A stretch of DNA of 64,000 nucleotides from Escherichia coli (GTDB taxonomy: Bacteria > Pseudomonadota > Gammaproteobacteria > Enterobacterales > Enterobacteriaceae), in the NCBI RefSeq assembly GCF_003334385.1, contig NZ_QOWN01000006.1; one strand, 5' to 3'. Positions 47,523 to 48,304 of the stretch are shown one piece after another (position 1 is the first letter of the stretch; the number at the start of each line of letters is the position of its first letter). The position numbers and the translations under genes were made by a program. The notes under the pieces were generated by a model. That model made no database searches and had not been told where the DNA came from. It saw only the letters and a list, made by a program, of their open reading frames with translations.

Positions 47523-48089
47523 TTACGCCGACTGCTCGCTGGCAACGATCTCTTCAATGGACCACGGATGAAACTTAATAGTTGTTTTGCCATCGGTGAC
47601 CGCCAGCGTCGGATTCGGTAATCGCTCATGCTCACCTTTTGGCGAACTGGTTTTCACTGAGATCCCCGGTAGGCTGAGTCCTTCATCAGAAAGCAATGCC
47701 AGCGCACGGGCATTCAGCGTTTCTGGATCACCCGGCAGAACGATTTCAATATGTTCCCAACCTTCGTGTGGGTAACGTTTTTCCCCGGGCCACGGTAGCT
47801 CCACAATAGAAAACTGCCAGTGCGCAACCTGTACCGGTTCATGCAATTTAAACAGACAAATCGGTCTGCCATTGATCATATTTTCTGACAAAAGCTCGCC
47901 ACACTGTTCAAACCCGCGACGCCAGCGTTCAGCAGTGGCGTTTTGATGGCAACGCAAAGAAATGTGATCGGCAGTCAGCGGAGTGATATTCAACCCCAGA
48001 CGGCGGGAAAGTTCATCTAATGCGTGGATAAATCGCGGTAAATCCGATGCAATATCCTGCAGCTCGTCGATAGATTGCCAGTTCGCCAT
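47523..48089 (-). CDS. yecM: Uncharacterised protein YecM (glyoxalase/VOC-like fold predicted)
   Basis: Translation (MI)MANWQSIDELQDIASDLPRFIHALDELSRRLG... (188 aa). Confidence 0.85.
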   Translation of the reverse strand: MANWQSIDELQDIASDLPRFIHALDELSRRLGLNITPLTADHISLRCHQNATAERWRRGFEQCGELLSENMINGRPICLFKLHEPVQVAHWQFSIVELPWPGEKRYPHEGWEHIEIVLPGDPETLNARALALLSDEGLSLPGISVKTSSPKGEHERLPNPTLAVTDGKTTIKFHPWSIEEIVASEQSA

Positions 48090-48304
48090 AATCACTCTTC
48101 GTCTTTCAGTAAAAGCGTTAATTTACCCTGTTGCCCTGTGCCAACCAACCGCTGATTTCACGCCGCTTCTGATGCAATAGTGAAAACGGCAATACGCCAC
48201 GCGCACGTTGCTGACGAAAACAGCCATTTGCAGTATACTCCCGCCCTAATTTCTTTAACTGGTGCGGGCAATTTTTGCTCGCTTCATCAATGTAAGGTAT
48301 TCCG

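Follow-up and report, generated by a model that had tools for sequence, protein, structure and literature searches.

YecM of Escherichia coli, encoded by the first gene of the yecM-cutC operon, is a vicinal oxygen chelate-fold protein with candidate metal-ligand residues

The closest described system is the locus itself. In Escherichia coli, yecM and cutC share one operon, in which the small RNA (sRNA) MicL is embedded (Guo et al. 2014, PMC4102768). The crystal structure of YecM (PDB entry 1K4N; Zhang et al. 2003, Proteins 51:311, as cited in PMC4102768) has been available since 2002. Other than YecM itself, the nearest known proteins fall into two sets: glyoxalase I (E. coli GloA, 1F9Z; Clostridium Ni-GlxI, 3HDP) together with methylmalonyl-CoA epimerase, and the DUF1338/HglS set of 2-oxoadipate dioxygenase-decarboxylases (E. 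coli YdcJ, 2RJB; Pseudomonas putida, 6W1G; rice, 6W1K; and 3LHO and 3IUZ), plus HMS and HPPD. Here we describe yecM in a window of 64,000 nucleotides of E. coli DNA (contig NZ_QOWN01000006.1 of RefSeq assembly GCF_003334385.1), with emphasis on positions 47523..48304, which comprise the yecM coding sequence and the entire spacer between yecM and argS. The gene, the structure, the operon partner and the embedded MicL have all been published, and the observation as such is already known.

The list of open reading frames places the yecM coding sequence (188 amino acids) on the minus strand at 47523..48089, with the ATG at 48089 and the TAA at 47525..47523. RefSeq annotates the product as "VOC family protein", VOC standing for vicinal oxygen chelate. 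An in-frame GTG is present at 48095, two codons 5' of the ATG; the RefSeq start is the ATG. From 46.7 to 50.0 kb, the window consists of E. coli K-12 sequence. Positions 47400-48400 show 100% identity to strain MG1655, and each of the 5426 complete E. coli genomes has a match to them with at least 95% identity, annotated as cutC, yecM and argS. yecM is an ordinary core gene of E. coli.

The second operon gene, cutC (248 amino acids, minus strand, 46763..47509), was taken from the open reading frame list and recognised by the NCBIfam model NF008603, "copper homeostasis protein CutC" (480.1 bits, cutoff 311). The junction between the two genes, 13 bp at 47510..47522, reads TTAAGGAGTAAAA on the minus strand and includes a strong Shine-Dalgarno sequence, AAGGAG, 5 nt before the cutC ATG (47509). 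A site scan of this junction revealed no terminator-like site. Since yecM and cutC are both on the minus strand, yecM is the upstream gene and cutC follows 13 bp downstream. On the other side, a spacer of 215 bp (48090..48304) separates yecM from its divergent neighbour argS (arginine--tRNA ligase, plus strand, 48305..50038, GTG start at 48305; open reading frame list and RefSeq). yecM is the first gene of a yecM-cutC(-MicL) operon that is transcribed away from argS, and the layout is the same as at the published locus. A preliminary description made from this DNA had claimed a gene of 188 amino acids, divergent from argS across 215 bp, and both statements agree with the coordinates given here. 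It had further placed yecM 13 bp downstream of cutC. The size of the gap was exact, but the direction holds only in plus-strand coordinates, as yecM is actually upstream.

The translated protein was identical to 1K4N, "Protein EC4020", at 188 of 188 residues (E = 2.6e-129), and 1K4N was also the sole match when a YecM alignment was used for a profile search of PDB sequences. The Pfam family YecM (PF06185) matched residues 10-185 on model positions 2-180 of 180 (E = 4.1e-74), and NCBIfam NF008678 (PRK11700.1-1), named "VOC family protein", covered positions 1-188 of 188 with 442.8 bits against a cutoff of 370. YecM is a member of PF06185 and NF008678 and the same protein as the solved structure.

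An AlphaFold2 model, built with 66 diverse homologues as input, had a mean pLDDT (predicted local distance difference test) score of 96.5. The first βαβββ module of the model (residues 39-99) consists of β39-46, α50-63, β64-72, β75-88 and β91-99, and the second (residues 110-174) of β110-117, α122-131, β144-148, β161-165 and β170-174. An N-terminal helix (residues 8-30) and a C-terminal helix are also present. YecM thus has, in one chain, the two βαβββ modules making a cupped β-sheet cleft by which the VOC superfamily is defined. The preliminary description had tentatively assigned a VOC/glyoxalase fold to YecM, and this assignment is borne out by the identity with 1K4N, the NCBIfam name and the topology of the model. 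We hold the identity of the gene and the VOC fold of its product with high confidence.

The YecM family has few members. When 1.84 billion representatives, clustered at 50% identity, were scanned exhaustively with HMMER, only 700 matches had E ≤ 1e-3, and 171 of them had E ≤ 1e-10. Among the best 50 Foldseek matches in AFDB50, the named organisms belonged to the Enterobacterales, Vibrionales, Pasteurellales and Alteromonadales (for example Shewanella and Ferrimonas). In a word-indexed homologue search, all of the matches listed were at least 77% identical to YecM. We also note the 406-residue protein A0A377ZFN8 of Klebsiella pneumoniae in AFDB, which is annotated as CutC but also includes a complete YecM domain (E = 9.6e-32 in Foldseek, with 179 columns aligned). 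It appears to be a YecM-CutC fusion, but may instead be an artefact of read-through or of an indel in the assembly.

Residue conservation was assessed in 66 full-length YecM homologues of 25-85% identity. R75, H113, E115 and H174 were invariant in this set, and F20, D41, H42, R46, G74, I77, L82, E97, P99, P101, V117, N159 and K172 were at least 90% conserved. In nine multidomain relatives, the equivalents of D41, H42, G74, R75, E97, H113, E115, N159, K172 and H174 were invariant. In the AlphaFold2 model, β1 carries H42 and R46, β4 carries E97, β5 carries H113 and E115, and β8 carries K172 and H174. In the VOC superfamily, the metal ligands come from the positions of those four strands. We therefore infer from the model that H42, E97, H113/E115 and H174 are candidate metal ligands on the expected VOC strands. 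Judged by conservation, the candidate active-site residues of YecM are H42, E97, H113, E115, H174, R46, R75, K172 and N159.

The metal ligands of E. coli glyoxalase I are H5, E56, H74 and E122, and by eye YecM and glyoxalase I have similar local patterns near the four strands that carry ligands. There are, however, several differences. The last ligand position is a histidine in YecM and a glutamate in glyoxalase I, YecM has the extra N-terminal helix (8-30) and an insertion (122-160), and the putative site of YecM lies within one chain, whereas that of GloA is formed across the homodimer interface. Moreover, judged by an hhalign comparison with GloA, glyoxalase I and methylmalonyl-CoA epimerase have no significant sequence relationship to YecM.

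The longest structural alignments of YecM were those with DUF1338 proteins, at 142-149 residues. HglS, a protein of this type, has a His-His-Glu metal triad, and its Arg74, four residues past His70, binds the distal carboxylate of 2-oxoadipate (PMC7286885). YecM might by analogy be a minimal Fe(II)/O2-dependent α-keto-acid oxygenase/decarboxylase of the HMS/HPPD/HglS (DUF1338) type. In line with this possibility, the β1 motif D-H42-x3-R46 of YecM resembles R-H70-x3-R74 in HglS, and the sole hhalign match between the YecM and DUF1338 families aligns exactly these H-x3-R motifs. However, the match is below significance. The DUF1338 profile in this comparison consisted of YdcJ and P. putida HglS alone, the YdcJ homologue search having returned E. 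coli/Shigella copies only, which were at least 93% and nearly all 98-100% identical. PF07063 (DUF1338) was also absent from a Pfam scan of YecM at E ≤ 10, which gave the YecM family only.

The H-x3-R motif itself is not specific either. The GloA sequence, which we verified against 1F9Z, carries H5-TML-R9, with identical spacing. The motif was therefore ruled out as a specific link between YecM and HglS and is better regarded as a general signature of the first VOC strand. YecM also differs from the DUF1338/HglS proteins in its length (188 residues versus roughly 250-460) and in its third ligand, which would be a histidine in YecM and is the glutamate of the "HHE" triad in HglS. With His174 on the last strand and the additional conserved E97 on β4, YecM appears to have four or more candidate ligands, which would bring it nearer to glyoxalase I and the epimerase. 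Taken together, these points make an oxygenase/decarboxylase of the HglS type unlikely. The conserved His and Glu residues on four ligand strands, in place of a 2-His-1-carboxylate triad, make us lean weakly towards Lewis-acid chemistry like that of glyoxalase I or the epimerase over O2 activation.

Proteins in which YecM is fused to other domains were found in metagenomic and genomic sequences (our representatives P0233, P0246, P0253, P0267, P0268, P0247, P0239 and P0250). Nine long family representatives comprised five proteins with YecM followed by an HAD-IA phosphatase, and one each of the types DUF4269-YecM-HAD, YecM-DUF4269, YecM-GNAT and ankyrin-YecM. The models nearest to the HAD-IA part were PpaX and phosphoglycolate phosphatase, all below cutoff, and DUF4269 carries a GS...DxD nucleotidyltransferase-like motif. 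The YecM-HAD fusions argue for small-molecule, probably phospho-metabolite, enzymology. At one locus (L082, 6001..7143), a YecM-HAD gene is followed 15 bp on by an acetate kinase gene.

The best joint explanation of these data is that yecM, as the first gene of its operon and with a promoter of its own, encodes a VOC-fold mononuclear metalloenzyme for a small anionic metabolite, and we consider this combination slightly more probable than its opposite. One divalent metal would be held by three or four of the residues H42, E97, H113/E115 and H174, and the conserved cationic or polar residues R46, R75, K172 and N159 would surround the site. The metal would chelate two neighbouring oxygens of the metabolite, with the Arg and Lys residues holding the negative charge of the substrate. 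The metabolite could be, for example, an α-hydroxy or α-keto acid, or an enediol-type compound that is phosphorylated or carboxylated. The reaction may be of the isomerase, epimerase or lyase type, as in glyoxalase I or methylmalonyl-CoA epimerase, with an O2-dependent reaction as the less likely alternative. The role would probably be that of a housekeeping or metabolite-repair step.

Several points weigh against this assignment. The mapping of residues to ligands is derived from strand position and not from measured geometry. Some VOC proteins, for example the bleomycin-binding proteins, are not enzymes. When the YecM family was compared with E. coli glyoxalase I by hhalign, the probability was 0.9% with 13 columns aligned, and with YdcJ and HglS it was 0.5% (E = 0.12), neither of which is significant, so that no chemistry can be transferred to YecM by homology. 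By these comparisons, YecM is a VOC family separate from the characterised ones. Metal content, ligand or activity data for YecM were not found in the searchable literature, and the neighbourhoods of distant YecM homologues (see below) are variable and uninformative. Whether YecM is a metal-dependent small-molecule enzyme seems to us about evenly balanced, and our confidence in any particular chemistry is much lower. The data establish the identity of the gene, the fold of its product, the pattern of conservation and the layout of the operon; metal binding, the class of substrate and the type of chemistry are what we infer.

Gene neighbourhoods were compared at 80 Enterobacteriaceae loci. A scan of genome contigs with a 12-sequence alignment had retained Enterobacteriaceae alone, all of them at 79% identity or more. 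In 79 of the 80 loci, cutC lay downstream of yecM at a distance of no more than 6 kb. The tight junction of 12-26 bp was seen in only about 20 of these 79, Escherichia, Salmonella and many Citrobacter included; in most Enterobacteriaceae genera the junction measured 73-95 bp, and in Cedecea and Buttiauxella the gap was about 1.2 kb. In Cedecea neteri (L064, 6568..7707, minus strand), a convergent gene for a 379-residue protein resembling pyridoxal phosphate-dependent aminotransferases and C-S lyases separates yecM and cutC. In Superficieibacter (L031, 6628..7266, plus strand), a gene for a 212-residue membrane protein is inserted between them on the same strand. These insertions indicate that the yecM-cutC operon is not universal even within the Enterobacteriaceae. 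The tight coupling of yecM and cutC is lineage-restricted.

Seven loci outside the Enterobacteriaceae encode YecM proteins of 34-48% identity. cutC was found in one of the seven, next to a homologue of 48% identity, and in none of the loci with homologues of 34-38% identity. argS was the divergent neighbour in 77 of the 80 Enterobacteriaceae loci, where the start codons of the two genes are 174-251 bp apart, and it was head-to-head with yecM in four of the seven distant loci (L086, L087, L088 and L095). Adjacency to argS is thus kept in more distant loci than adjacency to cutC. At other distant loci yecM has different neighbours. Two of these homologues are 35-36% identical to YecM (tblastn): in one locus (L094, 3501..4567) dsbB overlaps yecM by 4 bp and fadR is adjacent, and in another (L092, 47..1839) the order is ykuD, yecM and a DUF938 methyltransferase-like gene. 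A further distant homologue adjoins a ychF-like GTPase gene. The neighbours of the most distant homologues (L089 and L090) had no NCBIfam or recorded Pfam matches.

The 3' part of cutC contains MicL, an sRNA of 308 nt (minus strand, 46684..46991) that ends in the intrinsic terminator of the operon. It was identified by Rfam model RF02654, which matched at full length (1-308) with 381.9 bits against a gathering score of 56. Directly upstream of the MicL 5' end, a sigma-E-type promoter is readable, with GGAACTT at 47024 to 47018, a spacing of 16 nt and TCCAA.

MicL bears on the question of copper. Guo et al. (2014, PMC4102768) traced the copper-sensitive phenotype of cutC mutants to the absence of MicL, which raises Lpp levels, and not to the absence of the CutC protein. 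A deletion of the 5' part of cutC that removes CutC but spares MicL is not copper-sensitive in the manner of ΔcutC. As the copper phenotype stems from MicL and Lpp, the "copper-related" label of the neighbouring gene is not evidence about YecM. The preliminary description had left it open whether the pairing with cutC was meaningful. The pairing is real in that yecM and cutC belong to a single operon in E. coli, but its copper aspect is weak, since the phenotype belongs to MicL.

YecM could nevertheless be a copper- or metal-handling partner of CutC. The operon would then serve copper homeostasis, with YecM binding copper or delivering it. The single operon with its 13-bp gap and Shine-Dalgarno sequence, the proximity of cutC in nearly all Enterobacteriaceae loci and at the locus of the 48%-identical homologue, and the earlier hypothesis that both YecM and CutC bind metal (PMC4102768) are all in keeping with such a role. 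This role is disfavoured by the presence, inside the cutC gene of this very window, of the MicL to which the copper sensitivity was traced, by the rarity of the tight junction and the genes inserted elsewhere, and by the lack of a nearby cutC at the 34-38% identity homologues. In addition, none of the conserved residues in the 66 homologues is a Cys or Met as is typical of Cu(I) sites. A search for copper data on YecM in the searchable literature found none. We regard a role of YecM in copper handling as very improbable indeed.

The spacer between yecM and argS was aligned for 15 Enterobacteriaceae genera. On the yecM side, the conserved block includes a probable promoter at 48120..48148 on the minus strand, with TTGGTT (48148 to 48143), a spacing of 17 nt and TAAATT (48125 to 48120). 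The candidate is a weak sigma-70 match (7 of 12 positions) below the threshold of the consensus scan, and it is its conservation in the 15 genera that suggests that TTGGTT-17-TAAATT is probably the yecM promoter. On the argS side, the consensus scan indicated a probable promoter at 48211..48239 on the plus strand (CTGACG, 17 nt, TATACT), of which GCTGAC and TATA-T were invariant in the 15 genera. From these promoters, transcription would be expected to start at about 48113-48118 on the minus strand for yecM and at about 48246 on the plus strand for argS. The centre of the spacer (48155..48205) was unconserved and varied in length between genera.

Between the argS promoter and the Shine-Dalgarno sequence and GTG of argS, a minimum free energy (MFE) fold predicted a stem-loop in the 5' leader (48260..48286, plus strand). 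The argS leaders were folded sequence by sequence, as the MAFFT alignment does not register the stems. A hairpin with a stem of 6-9 bp was predicted at the same position in 15 of 15 genera, with differing stem sequences and with MFE values of the individual leaders between -11 and -18 kcal/mol. It is not an obvious terminator, because no U-tract follows it; a role in mRNA stability or in regulation is conceivable. Beyond argS, RefSeq annotates YecV, a 14-codon small protein encoded between argS and yecT in MG1655. By correspondence, it would lie at about 50081..50125 on the minus strand (L001, 6681..6725), far under the open reading frame length thresholds used here.

The conserved head-to-head arrangement raises the possibility that YecM acts in or near the biology of arginine or of arginyl-tRNA synthetase (ArgRS). 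The maintenance of the divergence in most Enterobacteriaceae loci and in four of the seven distant loci speaks for this idea. However, the two promoters form separate blocks, and no shared operator-like element was seen in the 15-genus alignment of the spacer, which argues for retained synteny rather than co-regulation and suggests that the divergent promoters are independent. Synteny beside an essential gene can also last without a functional link, other homologues adjoin dsbB, ykuD/DUF938 or the ychF-like GTPase gene and not argS, and no tRNA- or arginine-related domain was fused to YecM among the long family representatives. A connection with arginine or ArgRS therefore seems very unlikely.

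Apart from one CRISPR interference (CRISPRi) preprint, no functional study of YecM (including searches for b1875 and PF06185/COG3102/1K4N) and no revised function of CutC were found in the searchable literature. According to passages of this imaging preprint, yecM falls into a "Division I" cluster together with yagH, ybcN and ycgB, a cluster characterised by filamentous, polynucleate cells with no replication defect (bioRxiv 10.1101/2025.06.10.658525). YecM might accordingly be needed, directly or indirectly, for cell division. The same passages state that targets were picked by a pooled CRISPRi depletion score or a transposon-directed insertion-site sequencing (TraDIS) call, and they report no deletion or complementation of yecM. 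In the operon, a knock-down of yecM would also be polar on cutC. Furthermore, "bad-seed" toxicity and filamentation caused by dCas9 have been described in E. coli, and ybcN is a gene of cryptic-prophage origin, a point that would favour artefacts of dCas9 or of individual guides. For these two reasons we treat the division phenotype of yecM as unvalidated. A viable yecM deletion is presumably present in the Keio collection, which also counts against a division role. We consider a requirement for YecM in cell division extremely unlikely.

To the published operon, the present analysis adds only the lineage restriction of the tight yecM-cutC junction. For the protein it adds the list of candidate active-site residues, the fusion partners (HAD-IA phosphatase and DUF4269) and the realisation that the association with cutC and copper is a poor guide to function. 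A more far-reaching proposal is that YecM is a hitherto unrecognised metalloenzyme of metabolite repair or detoxification in the γ-proteobacterial core, with a four-residue site like that of glyoxalase I or the epimerase and a phosphorylated or carboxylated substrate. We rate this specific version as distinctly unlikely. If it were true, the metabolite-repair role would fit the recurrent fusions to HAD phosphatases and to DUF4269 nucleotidyltransferase-like domains, and loss of YecM might perturb envelope or division physiology, or YecM might be linked to arginine or ArgRS via the head-to-head argS. YecM is one of the universally conserved proteins of E. coli, its structure was solved as early as 2002, and the residue list, the fusions and the copper result narrow the search for its function.
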